Shown here: in pieces, positions 34,485 through 42,219 of the stretch
Layout of the letters: every line of letters starts with the position of its first letter
How positions within the stretch are numbered: position 1 is the first letter of the stretch
Sequence record: PZ324410.1
Source: a phage
Reading direction: 5' to 3' (one strand)
DNA length: 47,561 bases
Notes under the pieces: generated by a model
The model's input: only the letters and a program-made list of their open reading frames with translations
Told to the model about the DNA's origin: nothing
Databases searched by the model: none
Made by a program: the position numbers and the translations under genes

Positions 34485-34510
34485 AACCCCGCTTCGGCGG
34501 GGTTAGTTTT
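34485..34510. terminator. bidirectional rho-independent terminator
   Basis: aaccccgc ttcg gcggggtt hairpin then TTTTT. Confidence 0.65.
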
Positions 34511-34542: not shown

Positions 34543-34968
34543 CTAATTTTGTTTTGGATAATTCTTCGATCTCCAGTCGTTAAAAGCCATCATTGCTGCT
34601 TCCCATCCTAGCGCTACACACACTGTGCATCCGGCATTTAAAGATGCGGAAAGGTAATCAATCTGGCCTTCCTCCCAATCGCTAAGAGTGTGGTCTTTCC
34701 TCTTCATCTCAATAACAAGAGATGGATTTCCAGGGATTATTATATCTGACGCACCTTTATTTAAAGCGCCTTTCTTTTTTAGGTTGCTGACCTCATGTGC
34801 TTTTCTCTTTCCTTCGTTTGGAATGTGAAGCACCAGCCGACCAAAACTATCAGGATACATTTTCCTCAATTGATTTATAAAAGTTACAAGCTCAGCGTCT
34901 TCAACATGACACTTCTTGTCTCTGTATGTTTTATCTCCATATACCTTTAGCCATTCAGGAAAAATCAT
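34543..34968 (-). CDS. VRR-NUC domain nuclease
   Basis: PD-(D/E)xK-like core DIIIPG...VIEMKRK in 141-aa ORF trimmed to ATG 34968. Confidence 0.5.
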   Translation of the reverse strand: MIFPEWLKVYGDKTYRDKKCHVEDAELVTFINQLRKMYPDSFGRLVLHIPNEGKRKAHEVSNLKKKGALNKGASDIIIPGNPSLVIEMKRKDHTLSDWEEGQIDYLSASLNAGCTVCVALGWEAAMMAFNDWRSKNYPKQN

Positions 34969-36830
34969 AATACCCCCCAATACATGCCTTTAACGTTGAA
35001 ATATTTACTACCCTTATCTCTTCTGAACATAATCACTGATGGCGAGACAGCCTCATCTCTTTTAGATATTGCATCATCAATTGACATGTTATGTTCACCA
35101 AAGCACTTCTCACAAAATTCTTCCCACTCCTTCTTCATCCATTCCTTCTCAGAGTTTGGATTGTAGAACTTGCTAACAAAAAATGGTTTCTGTTCAATAG
35201 CAAATTTTACGTGCACCAAATCTTCACCGCTTGAAACGTAATGCTTCATGATGTTCATCATGGTTACACTTGATTGCTTGGTTGCATAAGGAGAAGAATC
35301 AAGCCTGTCAGCTTCTTCCTTTAGTTTTTGGTTGGGGTCAATAATTTCAGCTCCGCATGATGTGCAATTTCTTGCTGCTATATCATTTTCAAACCCACAA
35401 TCTGGACACTCCTTTACCGACCATTTATAAGTACACCTATGCATTTCCCTTAGTGGTCCATGCATAACGTAGTTTTTACACCGCCTACCAAAATGAGCAG
35501 GCATGGGCTTGCTTCCAATCTTTTCACCTGACTTATCAAAAATATCAATCATTACTCTGTCACCCGCCAAATCCAGCCAGTAACCTTCCTTGTCAACTTC
35601 AAGATTTTCAGGATTTGGGCGCACACCAAATTCATTAATAAAGCCACAAAGAGGGCATTTGACATCCATTGGCACGGATGGTTTTTTCCTTGTTGCTTTT
35701 ATTTCTGGAGTGAACAAGTCCCCGGTCTCAGAAAAGTGACGTTGAATATTGCCTGCGTAATCGCTGACAAGAAAGTCTTCCTTGCCTTCATAAAGACGCG
35801 TCCCCCTGCCAATTATTTGCTGGTATAGTCTTGGTGATTCTGTGGCTCTCATTACTGCTATGTGATCACAATGAGGAACATCCACCCCTACAGTAAGGAT
35901 ATTCTGATTGACGATGTATTTAACTTTTTGCGCCTTGAAGTCTGATATTGCCTTATTGCGTTCAGCTGTCGGCATATCACCAAAAACATAACTATAAGAA
36001 CCGGGAGGCAGTGACTCCATTATCTCCATAGCGTGTTTCTTTGTGCTGGCAAAAATCATCGTTCCGAGACGATTAACGGAGCGACGGATAATATCTTCAA
36101 CAATACGTGATGTCTTCCTTCCCTTGCCAACCATCGCCTTTTCAACTGAAGATGTTGTGTACCGACCCAACTTATCCTTTTCAAGACAAGACGTATCATA
36201 CTCGTCAAAAACAGGCTCTGTAACTGGCGGCGTAAGGTATCCGTTTTCAATGAGGAATTTCGCCTCAAGCTCATAAACGACTTTGTCGTAATATGGGTCT
36301 ATGGCTGTTTCTTCATCTGTAGGACCGTCGAGGTAATGCTCTTTGTAGATGTATCCAGTTCCAAGGCGATAAGGCGTAGCGGTCATTCCAATAACACGCA
36401 GTTTTGGATTGCGACGCTTCATTTCATTAATAATAAATTTAATGGTTGGTGTTATTCCATCGCACTCATCAATAATGACAGCACCATACTTATCACCAAA
36501 CATCTCTATTGAGTTCTTGATTGTAACTGGTGAACCAAACACCACCGGATGACGCAGGTTTTTTGGGCCAGCCTTTGCACTGAACATGCTGGCTGGTTCT
36601 CCGGTGAGAAGATATTTAGCGCGATTTTGTGTGACGAGTTCCGCCGTGGGAGCAATGCACAAAACTCGCTTTTTGCTCATGCCATAAATACGAGATGCAA
36701 GTTCTGCTACAACCATAGATTTTCCTGCACCTGTAGGTAGGATGATAACGCATGATGAGATTGTGCTGCGAATGTGTGCCATAGCTGAATCAACAGCTTC
36801 CTGTTGGTATGGCCTTAGTGTGTATTTCAT
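34965..36830 (-). CDS. SF2 DEAD/DEAH-box DNA helicase with C-terminal zinc fingers
   Basis: Walker A PTGAGKS, DECD box, MTATP motif, QIIGRGTR motif VI; Cys pairs near C-terminus. Confidence 0.8.
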   Translation of the reverse strand: MKYTLRPYQQEAVDSAMAHIRSTISSCVIILPTGAGKSMVVAELASRIYGMSKKRVLCIAPTAELVTQNRAKYLLTGEPASMFSAKAGPKNLRHPVVFGSPVTIKNSIEMFGDKYGAVIIDECDGITPTIKFIINEMKRRNPKLRVIGMTATPYRLGTGYIYKEHYLDGPTDEETAIDPYYDKVVYELEAKFLIENGYLTPPVTEPVFDEYDTSCLEKDKLGRYTTSSVEKAMVGKGRKTSRIVEDIIRRSVNRLGTMIFASTKKHAMEIMESLPPGSYSYVFGDMPTAERNKAISDFKAQKVKYIVNQNILTVGVDVPHCDHIAVMRATESPRLYQQIIGRGTRLYEGKEDFLVSDYAGNIQRHFSETGDLFTPEIKATRKKPSVPMDVKCPLCGFINEFGVRPNPENLEVDKEGYWLDLAGDRVMIDIFDKSGEKIGSKPMPAHFGRRCKNYVMHGPLREMHRCTYKWSVKECPDCGFENDIAARNCTSCGAEIIDPNQKLKEEADRLDSSPYATKQSSVTMMNIMKHYVSSGEDLVHVKFAIEQKPFFVSKFYNPNSEKEWMKKEWEEFCEKCFGEHNMSIDDAISKRDEAVSPSVIMFRRDKGSKYFNVKGMYWGVL

Positions 36831-37204
36831 AAGTCAAACTCCTTGCACCACTCGACAACATGCTCGCACTGCTTAACATCAAACATTCCTATGTGACACT
36901 TCTCTTTTCTTATTCCCATCGAACTAGCTAATGCAGAATAAGCAGAGCCTCTTGACATTTTTCCTGATTTCCATAAGGGATCAAATGCAGCATGGGCTTT
37001 GCTTTTTGCCTTTCTTAATTCTTCATTTGCCACACGCCCAAGAGGTCTTTTCCCATCACCATTTTTGTGGCAACCAACATAAGCACCACAAGAATCACAT
37101 AGATAAAAATTAAGAGACGAAAGGTCTGGTCTGTGTGGGTAAATTTCACTCCCTTTAGCTAGTCTTGTCGCAATATTGCAGTAATCACAGATAACTTCGT
37201 ACAT
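36827..37204 (-). CDS. zinc-finger protein
   Basis: CDYC and CDSC Cys pairs; ORF trimmed to ATG 37204 with GGGGG RBS. Confidence 0.5.
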   Translation of the reverse strand: MYEVICDYCNIATRLAKGSEIYPHRPDLSSLNFYLCDSCGAYVGCHKNGDGKRPLGRVANEELRKAKSKAHAAFDPLWKSGKMSRGSAYSALASSMGIRKEKCHIGMFDVKQCEHVVEWCKEFDL

Positions 37205-37261
37205 ATAAACCCCCAATTAAAAGCCCCTTAGCGGGGCTTTATTTAAATAAACATCAAGTCA

Positions 37262-37783
37262 TTAAAACGGCACGTCAGAGTCAAAGTCCATCGGAGGCTC
37301 GTTAGATGGCGCTGATTGCTTAGGAGCAGGCGCTGATTTTGTTTGTTGACGACTGAAAACACCAGCCACATAGTTACCAGTTTTTTGCTTATCCTCAGAT
37401 TCCCAAACGCGCAGAAGAAGGATCATCGGGCGATTAGCAAGCGCACTAGCAATAGCAAAATCAGTCGGCTCTTTCCCTGACGCCATCAGCTTGCCACCAG
37501 CGTTTGCGTCAATTGCTGCAAGCATAGTGATAGCATTGTCGCGCTGCTTTTCTTTTGAGCTAAATACTTTCAGCTTCTGGAAGATGATGCGATTTTTATA
37601 CTCACCATCAAGGATTCTCCACTTAAGATTGAAGAATCGCTCACCTTCCCACTGATCGTCTTTACACTCTTCAACGGCAGCAAGAACACGGCTGCCATCA
37701 GGAATTACTTCGAAACCACCACCCAGCTCAAATTCAGATTTAGATTCAACAGCTTTACCGTCAGAAAGATTCCAGAAACCCAT
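37262..37783 (-). CDS. putative ssDNA-binding protein with SSB-like acidic C-terminal tip
   Basis: C-terminus MDFDSDVPF resembles bacterial SSB tip DFDDDIPF; sits beside Gp157 and AAA_24 genes. Confidence 0.5.
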   Translation of the reverse strand: MGFWNLSDGKAVESKSEFELGGGFEVIPDGSRVLAAVEECKDDQWEGERFFNLKWRILDGEYKNRIIFQKLKVFSSKEKQRDNAITMLAAIDANAGGKLMASGKEPTDFAIASALANRPMILLLRVWESEDKQKTGNYVAGVFSRQQTKSAPAPKQSAPSNEPPMDFDSDVPF

Positions 37784-37800
37784 TTTTGTGTCCTCTCGAT

Positions 37801-38280
37801 TTATTTGATGATCAGTTTTGGCTTGCCATCTGTAATGGCACAACCCTTAATCTCAATCCCGGCTTTTATCGCATTTTTAATTGCTGCGTTATCTGCCGAC
37901 ACTTTCACAACGCGGTACTGCTCAGGAAGCTGTTCAACAGGGACAAACACATCAAGAACTGGTGATGGTTTTCCAAGCGTGATACTGAACAACTTACCTT
38001 TGATGTTTGTCTTTCCTGACGCCATCATGTTTTGACGAAGATAATCTTTAAGGTTATCAATCTTCGCAACTAAAACACGCTTACGCTCAGAAAGACGGTC
38101 AATCTCTGATTTAAGTCCAGCTTCATCAGCTTCAAGCTCACGAATGTAAGCAGCAACCATTTCAGCCTTTCCTTCAAACTCCTCTTCAATAAGATTGATG
38201 GTATCTTCAATCTGCTCCCGTGGAATATCCTCCATCGCCAGTAGTTCATTAAGCTGTTTGGTTATCTCGTAGAGATGCAT
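37801..38280 (-). CDS. Sipho_Gp157 family protein
   Basis: N-terminal MHLYEITKQLNEL and coiled-coil typical of Gp157; start uncertain. Confidence 0.55.
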   Translation of the reverse strand: MHLYEITKQLNELLAMEDIPREQIEDTINLIEEEFEGKAEMVAAYIRELEADEAGLKSEIDRLSERKRVLVAKIDNLKDYLRQNMMASGKTNIKGKLFSITLGKPSPVLDVFVPVEQLPEQYRVVKVSADNAAIKNAIKAGIEIKGCAITDGKPKLIIK

Positions 38281-39091
38281 AATATTTAATCTCACTCAAA
38301 AGTGGGTTCTCACCTTTTTCAAAAGGAATTTCAGGTTCAAGGTTGTATCTGTTTTTAGCATTAACATACCCAATACGACCATCACCAGAGGTGATAAGAA
38401 CTCGCTGACCAGTCTGAACAACCTTTCCAAACTTGGTGACTTGCCCTTTCTTATCAGTCTCAGTTCCTTTCACAAACTCTTCATTTCTGATGTAAATAAC
38501 AGCATCACTAAGATTCACATAACCAGAAACTGAAGCATCATGCATGTCAAGTGTGTAAACGGTGTATTCATCAGCATCAGGTCGATTCTTCATCTTTTTA
38601 ACACCTGCGTGTGCAAGATAAATAATGCTCATCCCTTTTTCTTTGCGAAGATACTTGCATGCATTTATTATTTCAGCGTGCATTTCAGAAACAACAATAT
38701 ATCCTTTGTTGTAACCACCAGCCGCAGAACCTACGTTGTCAACACCGTAATTTTCACAAACCTCATGCTCAAACATTGAATGCAGGCTTGTGATTGAGTC
38801 AATTACAAGCGTTTTGTAATTATGTTCCTCAGTAATTAATGCGCGTAGCTGTGACAGCAAATCATCCTTTGTGCTTGTTTTGCGTTTAGCGTCAGCGCGA
38901 TTCAGAACAGGAAATGAATCAGGTTTCTTTTCATCATCCCAGTCATCAAAAACACCAGTGATCTCTTCAGCCTGAATAAACACTGGGTTTGGGAATAGCG
39001 CCGCAAGAGTTGTCTTGCCTACACCTGGAGTACCAACCAATGTTATGATTGGTGCTGCTGGTTTTGGTTTTTGAATCATTGATAAGCTCAT
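38249..39091 (-). CDS. AAA_24 family ATPase (Sak4-like)
   Basis: Walker A GTPGVGKTT and Walker B-like VIDSITSL; GAGAGGACA RBS. Confidence 0.7.
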   Translation of the reverse strand: MSLSMIQKPKPAAPIITLVGTPGVGKTTLAALFPNPVFIQAEEITGVFDDWDDEKKPDSFPVLNRADAKRKTSTKDDLLSQLRALITEEHNYKTLVIDSITSLHSMFEHEVCENYGVDNVGSAAGGYNKGYIVVSEMHAEIINACKYLRKEKGMSIIYLAHAGVKKMKNRPDADEYTVYTLDMHDASVSGYVNLSDAVIYIRNEEFVKGTETDKKGQVTKFGKVVQTGQRVLITSGDGRIGYVNAKNRYNLEPEIPFEKGENPLLSEIKYYASLRDNQTA

Positions 39092-39225
39092 AGTGTCCTC
39101 TCGATTTAACTCAGCATATCGCTGGTGTGACTTAAAGATACGTCAACATGATGGTAAACGCAATAGCTTGACGCAAATTTTTTTTGAGTTCATTATTGCT
39201 GCATACAGATAGCAGAGGTAAACAC

Positions 39226-39468
39226 ATGAAAAGCATCGCAGAACAGATAAGAGAAATGGAACAGACGAAGTTGTCGGAGCTGATTGATTATGTTGGAGGG
39301 CAATCACAACTGGCAAGATTTCTTGGTGTGTCAAAACAGGCTGTCAATCAGTGGGTGTCAAGAGGAAGAATTAGTGCTACAGCAGCAATTGATGCCGAGG
39401 CGCTTACTGGTGGAGTTTTCAGAAAGGAAGATTTAAGGCCAGCTGTTACAAAATGGATTGTTAAATAA
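39226..39468 (+). CDS. Cro/YdaS-like HTH DNA-binding protein
   Basis: helix-turn-helix QSQLARFLGVSKQAVNQW; divergent from recombination operon; ORF trimmed to ATG 39226. Confidence 0.6.
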   Translation: MKSIAEQIREMEQTKLSELIDYVGGQSQLARFLGVSKQAVNQWVSRGRISATAAIDAEALTGGVFRKEDLRPAVTKWIVK

Positions 39469-39470
39469 TA

Positions 39471-39497
39471 AAGCCCGCGTTTGCGGGCTTTTTTTAA
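39471..39497. terminator. bidirectional rho-independent terminator
   Basis: aagcccgc gttt gcgggctt hairpin then TTTTTTT. Confidence 0.7.
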
Positions 39498-39889
39498 ACT
39501 CCTTTTGAGCTTAAGCTATCTTTATCACGCCTTCCGCTATACTCTTTGCTTACATCCTCGTACAAAACACCAAACGCCTTACAGAAATTAAATAGTGCGT
39601 CACCCGCAAACACTTCGCTTGGATGCCAGTTTCCGGATTTTCTTGCAACATCCCTGTACGATGCTGTCACTATACCTACATTGTTTTCATATTGTATTCG
39701 ACAAAACAGTACGTCATCATCAATGCAGATACCCATATTGCAGCGGAATACGGGCATTTTCCAGTAGTAAACCTCCATCAGGTGTTTCCCTGTCATCATG
39801 GATATTGCGTTATCATGTGCGCGCTCAGGATTTTCTGACTCAAAATAGTCATACAAACCCCTCATCACCAGATACTTGTAATTGATCAT
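39494..39889 (-). CDS. hypothetical protein
   Basis: 131-aa ORF, overlap-coupled to primase gene. Confidence 0.5.
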   Translation of the reverse strand: MINYKYLVMRGLYDYFESENPERAHDNAISMMTGKHLMEVYYWKMPVFRCNMGICIDDDVLFCRIQYENNVGIVTASYRDVARKSGNWHPSEVFAGDALFNFCKAFGVLYEDVSKEYSGRRDKDSLSSKGV

Positions 39890-42219
39890 ATCTCAACCTC
39901 ATCATTTGTTAATTTATAAATTATTACGTTGTGAGATGTTCTTTTTGCATTTTCATCAATGCAAATAATACCATCTGATAACAACTTCTCTACGCACCTC
40001 TCGACATCAGCACGTTTATACCCACCTTCTTTTGCCACCCCTCTAACCATTGCTGTTTTGGTCATTCCACGCTTCACATATTCTTTAACCATGGAGAAAA
40101 TACCTTCAATTCTTTCTTCCATAGCTTTAGACTTCGCTCCGGCGATACTGTCAGCACGCATCATCAGATCGCTTGTTGATTTAATTGTTAATGCTACCGC
40201 ATATCTCAAGTGCTCCATGGTTATGACACCAGTATCGCACGCAAGAATGCCAGCAATCTTTGCCACTTTTACAGCGCATCTGTTTATCAATGGATGATAA
40301 CCAGTACCGTTTTCTACATGCTTTCTTGCAACGGTTTTAATCCATGAGAAGAACTCCTTAGCGAGCTGAGAAACTTCAGGAGTAGCTTTTATAATCCGTC
40401 TTTCTTTTTGACTGATTATTGAGTCTGTCCAGTTTTTGTGCCCAGCGGTTCCGCCATTTATTATTGTTTTTATGGTCAGTTGCATATCCATTGGCAGATC
40501 GCAGTAGTTGACGTTTTCGTTTTCGTCAGCAATCTCCTGCAACTCCTGCATAATCATTGCGCGCCCCATAAGACCTGACTTAATGTTTTCTTCAGTAATA
40601 AGGCGCTTAAACTGATCATCAGTAGACACGCCAAAGATTGAAAAAAATGGATTCCTTATAGCTCCATCAATTCTGTTTATCACATCATCAAACTGACACT
40701 TAATGTCAACAGGGTCTGCCTGTATCTCATTTTCCTCAATAGCCATCAACAGCATAGCCTTTCTCTTTTCGAAAGACTTAATGAAATCCTCAGTAACCCG
40801 CTGGTCACAATAAAGAACTTCTGACGTGTAAGCCTCCATGATCGCACCAGCGGTTGCCATGTTGTACTCGCTTACTTTCTGACCAACAACACTACCAAGT
40901 TTTATCCCAATCTCATCCATGATGATATTAAACATCTGGTTAGCACAAAGACCTTCATATATCGCACGCTCTGAACGTATCTTACCGGCGACAGTCTTAC
41001 TCAATCCTGAGCAATCAATTATCTTTTGTAGCGCAGCAAGAACATCACCCTTACCTGAACCTGAACCAGCGATACCAACAGCAAAAAGGTTTGGCAAAGC
41101 CTTCCTGTTTGTAAGGTAAATATCAGATGACGCTCCGCAAATCATGGATGCGGCATGCAATGCGGCAAGTGCTGCAATGTTCTCTCGCTTCTCTGCACAG
41201 TTCTTATTAATCCACGCCGTAAGGCGACCAACAAATCCAGGCGGATAACGGACATCAACACTTTTGTACTCTACAGGGCATTCACCAACACCCATTGCCA
41301 TCTCTCGCTCGAAAGACTCAAGTTTCTCAATTTCCTCTGGAGTAGCCTCAAAAGTTACTTGCCTTACCCACCCTCCCTCTTGCGCGAGATAAACCAGCGT
41401 TGCTTCGGTTATCTTTTCGCTAACACCGTCCTTTCCAAAGGAATGCCATTTTGCGTCCATCTCTTCAGCTCTGTACTTGCTGAACTGCGATGACCACCTA
41501 TCCCAAAGCTCAAAACCATTGCCTTCTGTAGCTTCGTGGATAGCCATACCTACATGAAGCCATGGGTCATACTCATCACCATCTTTGATGTATTTGAGCA
41601 TATCCTCCATTTCGGAAATGCTGTAATTTTTACTATCAAGCGTGAAAACCTCGTCTTCCGTTCTCTCAGGACGCAACAAAAGCTCAATAAGTTCAGATGG
41701 ACATTCAGTTATCTCTGAAGGGGATCCATGCTCGGCCTCATAAAAGTTTCCAGTTTTATGAAAAGAACCACATCCAACAACAAAACCAGAGGATTTAAAG
41801 TCAATACCCTTAAACCTTCTGTCATGAGAGCGCAGCTTTATTCCTTCAGGAAGTTTGTAATAGATGTGGCGACCACCACCACCAGTCTTAACCGTAAAAC
41901 CAGCTTCGTCAGCAAGCTCTACGTCTAAGGCATCACAAAGCGATTCATATCCATCATTACCTCCGTTGCGTGGATCAATATCAACGACCAGATAACCATT
42001 CACAAGGACACCGAATGACTGCAGTTGACCATATTCAGCCATATTTTCAATCTGGTCATCAGCCCATATAACTCCAAGCTGCCAGTTACTCATAACCGGA
42101 TGCTTACCGGCAGCATTGCAATCTGGATCACCGCATGTGCAATTGCGGTCGATATCCATTGCATGGATTCCAATAATAGGGAAGCCACATTTGCGGTAAT
42201 CTTCATAACCAATCATCAT
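39886..42219 (-). CDS. DNA primase/helicase (Prim-Pol N-terminal domain plus P-loop NTPase)
   Basis: N-terminal Prim-Pol-like region with acidic DIDPRNGG motif; Walker A GIAGSGSGKG in central region. Confidence 0.7.
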   Translation of the reverse strand: MMIGYEDYRKCGFPIIGIHAMDIDRNCTCGDPDCNAAGKHPVMSNWQLGVIWADDQIENMAEYGQLQSFGVLVNGYLVVDIDPRNGGNDGYESLCDALDVELADEAGFTVKTGGGGRHIYYKLPEGIKLRSHDRRFKGIDFKSSGFVVGCGSFHKTGNFYEAEHGSPSEITECPSELIELLLRPERTEDEVFTLDSKNYSISEMEDMLKYIKDGDEYDPWLHVGMAIHEATEGNGFELWDRWSSQFSKYRAEEMDAKWHSFGKDGVSEKITEATLVYLAQEGGWVRQVTFEATPEEIEKLESFEREMAMGVGECPVEYKSVDVRYPPGFVGRLTAWINKNCAEKRENIAALAALHAASMICGASSDIYLTNRKALPNLFAVGIAGSGSGKGDVLAALQKIIDCSGLSKTVAGKIRSERAIYEGLCANQMFNIIMDEIGIKLGSVVGQKVSEYNMATAGAIMEAYTSEVLYCDQRVTEDFIKSFEKRKAMLLMAIEENEIQADPVDIKCQFDDVINRIDGAIRNPFFSIFGVSTDDQFKRLITEENIKSGLMGRAMIMQELQEIADENENVNYCDLPMDMQLTIKTIINGGTAGHKNWTDSIISQKERRIIKATPEVSQLAKEFFSWIKTVARKHVENGTGYHPLINRCAVKVAKIAGILACDTGVITMEHLRYAVALTIKSTSDLMMRADSIAGAKSKAMEERIEGIFSMVKEYVKRGMTKTAMVRGVAKEGGYKRADVERCVEKLLSDGIICIDENAKRTSHNVIIYKLTNDEVEI

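Follow-up and report, generated by a model that had tools for sequence, protein, structure and literature searches.

The locus considered here raises the question of what a phage protein does when it ends almost exactly like the SSB (single-stranded DNA-binding protein) of Escherichia coli on a core of unrelated sequence. The gene lies in PZ324410.1, a stretch of phage DNA of 47,561 nucleotides (nt) that we call the window and on whose whole length all positions are counted. An earlier note on this DNA had placed an open reading frame (ORF) at 37262-37783, beside genes for Gp157 and an AAA_24 ATPase, and had likened the C-terminus of its product to the SSB tip; the coordinates and neighbours were exact, the gene being on the minus strand, and the resemblance was found to be stronger than noted, with 14 of the last 16 residues (APSNEPPMDFDSDVPF, against APSNEPPMDFDDDIPF in E. 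coli SSB) and 41 of the 48 nt encoding them identical. We think it probable, at roughly 0.8, that this gene, here named ssb, encodes the only SSB of the phage, in which a divergent DUF669 core with a predicted oligonucleotide/oligosaccharide-binding (OB) fold is followed by a linker and a host-like tail that would dock the neighbouring Sak4-like ATPase and the host proteins that read SSB tips. The gene and the parts of its product lie as follows.

37262-37783, minus strand: ssb ORF of 173 codons, from ATG at 37783-37781 to TAA at 37264-37262
37791-37797, minus strand: Shine-Dalgarno sequence GAGAGGA, 7 nt upstream of the ssb ATG, read from the sequence
37697-37783, minus strand: N-terminal segment, codons 1-29 (MGFWNLSDG...FELGGGFEVIP), conserved and poorly modelled
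37349-37696, minus strand: predicted OB-fold core, codons 30-145 (b1 31-45, b2 48-57/59, b3 66-71, helical insert 78-115, b4 120-128, b5 135-143)
37313-37348, minus strand: linker, codons 146-157 (QQTKSAPAPKQS), of low complexity and fast-evolving, with a predicted local distance difference test score (pLDDT) <50 in model 1
37265-37312, minus strand: SSB-type tail of the host type, codons 158-173

Translation gives a product of 173 amino acids with the C-terminus MDFDSDVPF (...KQSAPSNEPPMDFDSDVPF). A longer, TTG-initiated ORF reaching 37843 was rejected as the ssb gene because every homologue starts at the MGFWN/MSFWN position. Escherichia phage ECO95 1-6-1, whose host is E. coli O157:H7, and one Salmonella phage contig match the region at 100% identity. 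Three phages of the genus Cedarrivervirus, namely Shigella phage Sf11, Klebsiella phage YX3973 and Escherichia phage Sa179lw, match it at 92-96%, and in them RefSeq names the three genes "Sak4-like ssDNA annealing protein", "Mu Gam-like end protection" and "single strand DNA binding protein".

Profile searches placed the ssb protein in a family of phage SSBs. It passed the Pfam DUF669 model (PF05037; 26.5 bits against a gathering cut-off of 21, E 7.7e-6), with residues 23-141 on profile positions 10-127 of 138, and matched PHROG 9002, "single strand DNA binding protein", over its full length (E 1.7e-69, 234.7 bits; residues 1-173 on profile positions 1-192 of 192). The DUF669 cut-off was also passed by the orthologues in Proteus and Alcaligenes phages, the Vibrio orthologue falling just under it, and the orthologue gp09 of Shigella phage Sf11, which is 97.7% identical, is annotated as an SSB. 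An exhaustive search of 1.84 billion cluster representatives returned 606 relatives at E <= 1e-3; the annotated phages with a family member are phages of Vibrio, Brucella, Klebsiella, Proteus, Pantoea and Alcaligenes. A 2016 paper put DUF669 forward as a strongly diverged SSB of the OB-fold kind with acidic C-terminal tails, and noted that the viruses carrying it have no other SSBs (PMC4889955). By its profile matches the ssb protein is an uncharacterised member of this DUF669/PHROG 9002 family, of which the existence, the predicted function, the acidic tails and the partnership with Sak4 are already published, and the sister genomes are already annotated.

No second SSB was found in the window, where a phmmer search with E. 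coli SSB against all 412 stop-to-stop ORFs matched only the tail of the ssb protein. Nor was a replicative DNA polymerase found there, a Pfam search of every ORF of 170 amino acids or more having returned only a primase-polymerase (Prim-Pol) domain, and the Sf11 annotation likewise lists no other SSB and no replicative DNA polymerase.

The earlier note had found the N-terminal region not obviously a standard SSB OB fold by sequence, and the searches agree: a Pfam scan gave no match of the ssb protein to the bacterial SSB model PF00436, and the enterobacterial SSB model of NCBIfam, PRK09010, scored 26 bits against a cut-off of 260, the match being confined to residues 138-173 at the tail end. 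Structure prediction, which the note had proposed as a check for an OB fold, returned one in the models. AlphaFold2 gave a pLDDT of 71.4 with 54 homologues and of 85.1 with 141 representatives, residues 31-140 scoring >90 in the latter, and both models have the same layout of three strands, a three-helix insert at 78-115 and two further strands, which is the OB topology, a predicted five-stranded barrel in the order b1-b2-b3-(helix)-b4-b5. Foldseek comparison with predicted viral structures matched many proteins named "DUF669 domain-containing". We are confident in this predicted OB fold for the DUF669 branch to which the ssb protein belongs. No sequence link between the core and any PDB entry was found with phmmer (using the protein) or hmmsearch (using two family profiles), which returned only the tail of E. 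coli SSB or noise.

The structures of T7 gp2.5 and of Enc34 were absent from the top structural matches of the model, and the ssb protein showed neither a profile match nor its closest structural similarity to the gp2.5-like SSB/annealase family (DUF2815, PF10991). These results bear on the idea that the ssb protein is itself a strand-annealing recombinase of the gp2.5 kind, the Sak4-like ATPase having another role. A homologue in Yersinia phage vB_YenS_P400, 61% identical, was named "ssDNA annealing protein" by its depositors, and T7 gp2.5, which binds and anneals single-stranded DNA (ssDNA), also has an acidic tail ending in phenylalanine; we consider an annealase of this type very improbable here.

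The structure closest to the modelled core, and its only solved relative, is that of PrgE from the Enterococcus plasmid pCF10 (PDB 8S4S), a link suggested by the prediction that we did not find in the literature consulted for the family. PrgE coats ssDNA as monomers "like beads on a string", its N-terminal tail contacting the next monomer, and it also binds double-stranded DNA (dsDNA), the two equally (PMC11137577). The N-terminal segment of the ssb protein, which in the family has the form MSFWN.SDG...FE.GGG..EPIP, had a pLDDT of 51-73 in both models, and 90% or more of the homologues keep F3, F18, G21, I27 and P28; a conserved, poorly modelled segment of this kind fits an inter-subunit role, which it may have. 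One could imagine that the protein forms PrgE-like filaments on both dsDNA and ssDNA that organise or protect replication and recombination intermediates, and is not a classical ssDNA-specific SSB. This seems unlikely, as an acidic tip of the SSB type is absent from PrgE, whereas about 86% of the family considered here have an aromatic end, the phage needs some SSB and offers no other candidate, and the DUF669-linked proteins of N4 and HK620 are experimentally proven SSBs (PMC4889955, PMC5928155).

The most conserved motif of the family, A-x2-M-L-A-A-I-D-A-N-A-G-G-K-L (codons 84-100; 37484-37534, minus strand), sits in the helical insert of the OB fold, off the strands expected to contact DNA. 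Oligomerisation and partner binding are candidate roles for it.

The tail is where the protein resembles that of the host. Its end (...EPPMDFDSDVPF) corresponds to the bacterial SSB tip, an acidic D-[DE]-D-[IVL]-P-F after a disordered linker, and in Sf11 the tail is the exact E. coli SSB sequence (16 of 16 residues, 44 of 48 nt). E. coli SSB was the sole match, via the tail, of a phmmer search against PDB sequences (E 1.7e-4), and in 5424 of 5426 E. coli genomes blastn with the last 99 nt of the gene matched ssb at its 3' end (best match 44 of 51 nt, E 9e-7 in 28 Gb). The tip is also a family trait, since among the C-termini of 143 full-length representatives 99 are [IVLM]-P-F, 8 are x-G-F and 16 have another form ending in F. 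Given these tips across the family, together with the phmmer, blastn and NCBIfam matches, a chance resemblance is excluded. Enterobacterales phages have the extended EPPMDF form, among them the Proteus phage whose orthologue is only 43% identical.

An exception to the acidic tip is the orthologue in Vibrio phage pYD21-A (L005:3001-3513; 44% identical), which ends in ...APQTGGGLGF and has no acidic residues there. Separately, three metagenome homologues (P0063, P0066 and P0068; 81-84% identical, 194-195 amino acids) were seen to carry about 15 extra residues, AP[VF]GLQYANHAIYVL, beyond a ...DFDDDIPF tip. Such an extension would bury the terminal phenylalanine carboxylate normally bound by SSB partners, and loss of a stop codon, a gene fusion or a regulated variant are possible causes.

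Among 60 close homologues (at least 94% identical), 22 of the 28 alignment columns for codons 146-173 are variable, against 18 of 145 elsewhere, and F167, D170, P172 and F173 are invariant. Invariant residues amid a variable linker are the pattern expected of a disordered linker that ends in a constrained docking peptide. The intervening tip positions 168, 169 and 171 vary (D/S/E/N and V/I), giving DSDV, SDDV, DDDI, EEDV and NEDI on cores that are 94-99% identical, and this switching could be neutral drift or a tuning of partner choice. Mimicry of the host SSB tail is solid at the protein level, and near-identity over 16 residues in a polymerase-less phage was not found in the literature consulted for the family.

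A tail so nearly identical to that of the host could also suggest a decoy whose main task is something other than coating phage ssDNA, and many copies of which would titrate ExoI, RecQ, RecO, PriA and chi from the host chromosome or anti-phage nucleases and so stop host replication or repair; variation at the three tip positions among near-identical phages could reflect the tuning of such a decoy to its partners. Such a role is distinctly unlikely in our view, because DNA binding is what one would expect of a conserved OB core whose strands carry aromatic and basic residues, because genes for Sak4, helicase and primase accompany the family as a whole and no other SSB exists in the phage, and because the HK620 SSB is a bona fide ssDNA binder. 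Each of the three alternatives (annealase, PrgE-like scaffold and decoy) is less likely than an SSB.

The origin of the tail was approached through its codons. Compared with E. coli ssb, 10 of the 13 codons capable of synonymous change are identical, where 4.85 would be expected from phage codon usage (P ~0.003). When one genome was scanned for each bacterial species, 120 ssb-type tails came back; compared with the ssb of the 22 species that share the APSN-EPPMDFDDDIPF peptide, the median was 6 of 13 identical codons with 5.1 expected, which is chance level, and family-level mean codon identities did not single out Enterobacteriaceae. The APSN upstream of the tip is the Enterobacteriaceae form of ssb, and the ssb genes of Vibrio, Aeromonas, Yersinia, Serratia and Pantoea differ at that place. 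In Proteus phage RS51pmB, with a core only 43% identical to that of the window protein, the tail-coding end of the orthologue (L004:3490-3528) is identical at 38 of 39 nt to the 3' end of ssb in Morganella psychrotolerans (L115), Morganella being a Morganellaceae relative of the host. That tail is almost as close to other AT-leaning lineages, however, so that the case for host tracking is not decisive and shared codon bias explains it about equally well. The window tail may have been captured recently from a host ssb at the DNA level, a possibility for which 13 sites give an E. coli-specific signal but which is not demonstrated.

A broader proposal is that the protein is a natural chimera of a PrgE/DUF669-type phage OB core and a tail that came from the host lineage's ssb or was homogenised with it repeatedly, tails being replaced across the family to track the host. 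The Enterobacteriaceae-type APSN-EPPMDF signature, the codons shared with E. coli ssb, the near-identical Proteus tail and a breakpoint at the ssb stop codon (below) favour it, whereas the chance-level codon identity to the 22 species with the same tail and the sufficiency of codon bias in the Proteus case count against it, and we hold it as a tentative and rather doubtful idea. If it were true, a phage-specific ssDNA coat would have been plugged into the host SSB interactome (DNA polymerase III (Pol III) chi, DnaG, PriA, RecO) and would still serve the Sak4 of the phage.

The reading of the protein as an SSB is also consistent with its genomic setting, whose features are these.

39886-42219, minus strand: replication protein with Primase-polymerase, PriCT-2 and DUF3987 (D5-type) matches in Pfam, upstream of the module
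39470-39491, minus strand: terminator-like hairpin beside the Cro/YdaS-like gene
39287-39316, minus strand: candidate sigma-70 promoter TTGCCA-18-CATAAT upstream of the Sak4 gene, from a consensus scan only
39184-39468, plus strand: Cro/YdaS-like helix-turn-helix gene, divergent from the Sak4-Gp157-SSB block
38249-39091, minus strand: Sak4-like RecA-core ATPase (AAA_24; PF13479, E 1.9e-27; PHROG 124 "Sak4-like ssDNA annealing protein", E 6.3e-46)
37801-38295, minus strand: Sipho_Gp157 gene as listed from GTG at 38295, with a probable ATG at 38280 (PF05565, E 3.1e-38; PHROG 253 "Mu Gam-like end protection", E 3.5e-43)
37220-37242, minus strand: hairpin AAAGCCCC-GCTAA-GGGGCTTT followed by TAATT, 20 nt past the ssb stop, from the sequence and RNA folding
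36827-37216, minus strand: DUF3268 zinc-finger gene with a probable ATG at 37204 (PF11672, E 4.6e-38)
34965-36830, minus strand: superfamily 2 (SF2) helicase (ResIII and Helicase_C in Pfam, with C-terminal zinc ribbons)
34543-34980, minus strand: small nuclease-like gene of uncertain start, the last of the block; equivalents in relatives are annotated "DNA nuclease" or "type III restriction endonuclease"
34485-34504, both strands: GC-rich hairpin AACCCCGC-TTCG-GCGGGGTT flanked by T-runs on either side and placed between the tailspike gene (plus) and the nuclease-like gene (minus), which converge

The gene order is thus primase-helicase, Cro-like gene (on the opposite strand), Sak4-like ATPase, Gp157, SSB, DUF3268, SF2 helicase and nuclease-like gene, and the minus-strand genes of the module are all tightly packed or overlapping. 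Only the Gp157 gene separates the Sak4-like gene from ssb; it ends 17 nt upstream of the ssb ATG and, if started at the ATG at 38280, shares 32 nt with the 3' end of the AAA_24 gene, in agreement with the Sf11 annotation, where the Gp157 product has 159 amino acids. The earlier note had described Sak4-like ATPase, Gp157 and ssb as a known recombination trio. A block in one direction is indeed present and the association of Sak4, DUF669 and orf157-like genes is documented, sak4 commonly lying upstream of DUF669 SSB and ResIII/Helicase_C helicase genes and near orf157-like or Gam-like genes (PMC8093625), with about 80% of sak4 genes adjoining an ssb gene (PMC5928155). Gp157, on the other hand, is not a conserved member of the set. 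Phages of Brucella, Proteus, Vibrio and Alcaligenes keep the order Sak4, an optional gene, SSB, a small gene and helicase, the proteins being 37-46% identical; none of these has Gp157 between Sak4 and SSB, and in the Proteus, Vibrio and Alcaligenes phages the two genes adjoin directly, so Gp157 is better seen as an accessory. The role in recombination that the note proposed also covers only part of the module, which with its primase-helicase and SF2 helicase, and no polymerase of its own, is equally one of replication.

Downstream of ssb, the DUF3268 gene and the hairpin (36827-37242) are an insertion relative to Sf11, YX3973 and Sa179lw, megablast similarity to these phages setting in precisely at the stop codon of ssb; in Sf11, 11 nt lie between ssb and the helicase gene that comes next. 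The end of ssb that encodes the tail is therefore bordered by a mosaic junction. An intrinsic terminator after ssb was considered and rejected, as the terminator scan made no call, the T-run being too short, and the fold z-score was -1.0; the hairpin at 37220-37242 is possibly a weak terminator or attenuator. The equivalent of the SF2 helicase in Alcaligenes phage CASP1 is named radD-like. The nuclease-like protein had no match in Pfam or NCBIfam, and a D...E-M-K motif was seen in it by eye only. The hairpin at 34485-34504 is likely a bidirectional terminator closing the replication/recombination block. At the other end, the Cro/YdaS-like gene and its adjoining hairpin are probably an early regulatory switch region; the candidate promoter lies within the divergent region opposite this gene, and the region is no richer in promoter-like sites than its shuffles.

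From these observations a mechanism can be proposed. The OB core (residues ~30-145) would coat phage ssDNA at forks and resected ends, and the N-terminal segment may link neighbouring monomers as in PrgE. On the coated DNA the tail would then be the docking site for partners. The SSB of phage HK620 binds ssDNA, and its last 6 residues are required both for the binding of Sak4 to ssDNA coated with SSB and for annealing (PMC5928155); by analogy, the adjacent Sak4-like ATPase of the window is a likely partner, which would be loaded and stimulated by the tail to anneal complementary strands. Gp157, Gam-like by its PHROG, may protect ends. We suggest that Sak4, Gp157, SSB, the zinc-finger protein, the SF2 helicase and the nuclease-like protein together act as one replication/recombination module.

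In E. coli the chi subunit, primase and the restart proteins are among those that read the SSB tip. The phage presumably uses the host polymerase, since neither the window nor the Sf11 annotation contains a replicative DNA polymerase, and such reliance would give a rationale for a tail that host chi, primase and restart proteins can read. Recruitment by the tail of Pol III chi, DnaG, PriA, RecO, RecQ and ExoI is plausible from the identity of the sequences and from the lack of a replicative polymerase in the phage; the only partner of such a tail demonstrated by experiment is the phage's own Sak4, in HK620, and for host factors we infer it.

Several points weigh against the proposed reading of the ssb protein as a tail-docking SSB. 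The SSB function of the protein and of its PHROG is a prediction, and ssDNA specificity is not guaranteed, because PrgE, the closest structure, binds dsDNA as well and has no SSB-type tip. The Sak4-docking role is transferred by analogy of module and architecture only, from a phage whose SSB has a different tail. Homology to that protein was not detected when a 141-sequence profile was compared by hhalign with a 37-sequence profile of the HK620 family (probability 0.5%, E 0.11) or when profile was compared with sequence (also <1%); the HK620 SSB has no Pfam match, the DUF669 model included, and BLASTP found no direct similarity between the Sak4-like protein of the window and HK620 Sak4. As the profile comparisons gave probabilities <1%, we use HK620 as a functional analogue and not as a demonstrated homologue.

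The analysis confirms the annotation of Cedarrivervirus phages as carrying one non-canonical SSB in a Sak4-Gp157-SSB-helicase module, and adds an OB-fold model for this DUF669 branch with a predicted structural link to PrgE. Since the branch joins a near-copy of 16 residues of the host SSB tail to a core of unrelated origin, and does so in a phage without a polymerase, it could be a clean natural system in which to learn what share of the SSB interaction hub the tail by itself accounts for. Phage SSBs trigger several defence systems, among them Retron-Eco8, DARNA, Hna and AbpAB, so knowing the type of SSB that each phage carries would be useful for predicting sensitivity. The set of Sak4 and SSB, with or without Gp157, could also be tested as a recombineering cassette for Enterobacteriaceae.

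Among known systems, gp09 of Sf11 differs in nothing essential, having the same family, gene neighbourhood and acidic aromatic tail; its tip is DDDIPF where that of the window is DSDVPF, and of the two only the window has the DUF3268 gene inserted directly downstream. The HK620 SSB (HkaK/Abc1; Hutinet et al. 2018, PMC5928155) is, like the window protein, a non-canonical phage SSB with an adjacent Sak4-type ATPase and an acidic P-F tip. Its homologues are named DUF669 by NCBI, but it falls in PHROG 743 and the window protein in PHROG 9002, its tail is NDYPPF in place of the EPPMDFDxDxPF type, and it belongs to a temperate lambdoid recombination module with Abc2, whereas ssb lies in a replication module with primase and helicase. 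PrgE is only 12-15% identical to the window protein, with no profile-level sequence match, and differs from it in having no SSB-type tip, in binding dsDNA and ssDNA equally and in belonging to a conjugation operon. E. coli SSB shares the arrangement of OB domain, disordered linker and acidic tip, with 14 of the last 16 residues identical; its core has no detectable homology to that of the window protein, which has a long, predicted helical insert, and nothing in the window protein points to the tetramer architecture of SSB. T7 gp2.5 and ORF6 of Enterobacter phage Enc34 resemble the window protein as phage OB-fold SSBs in which an acidic, aromatic-ended tail recruits replication proteins.
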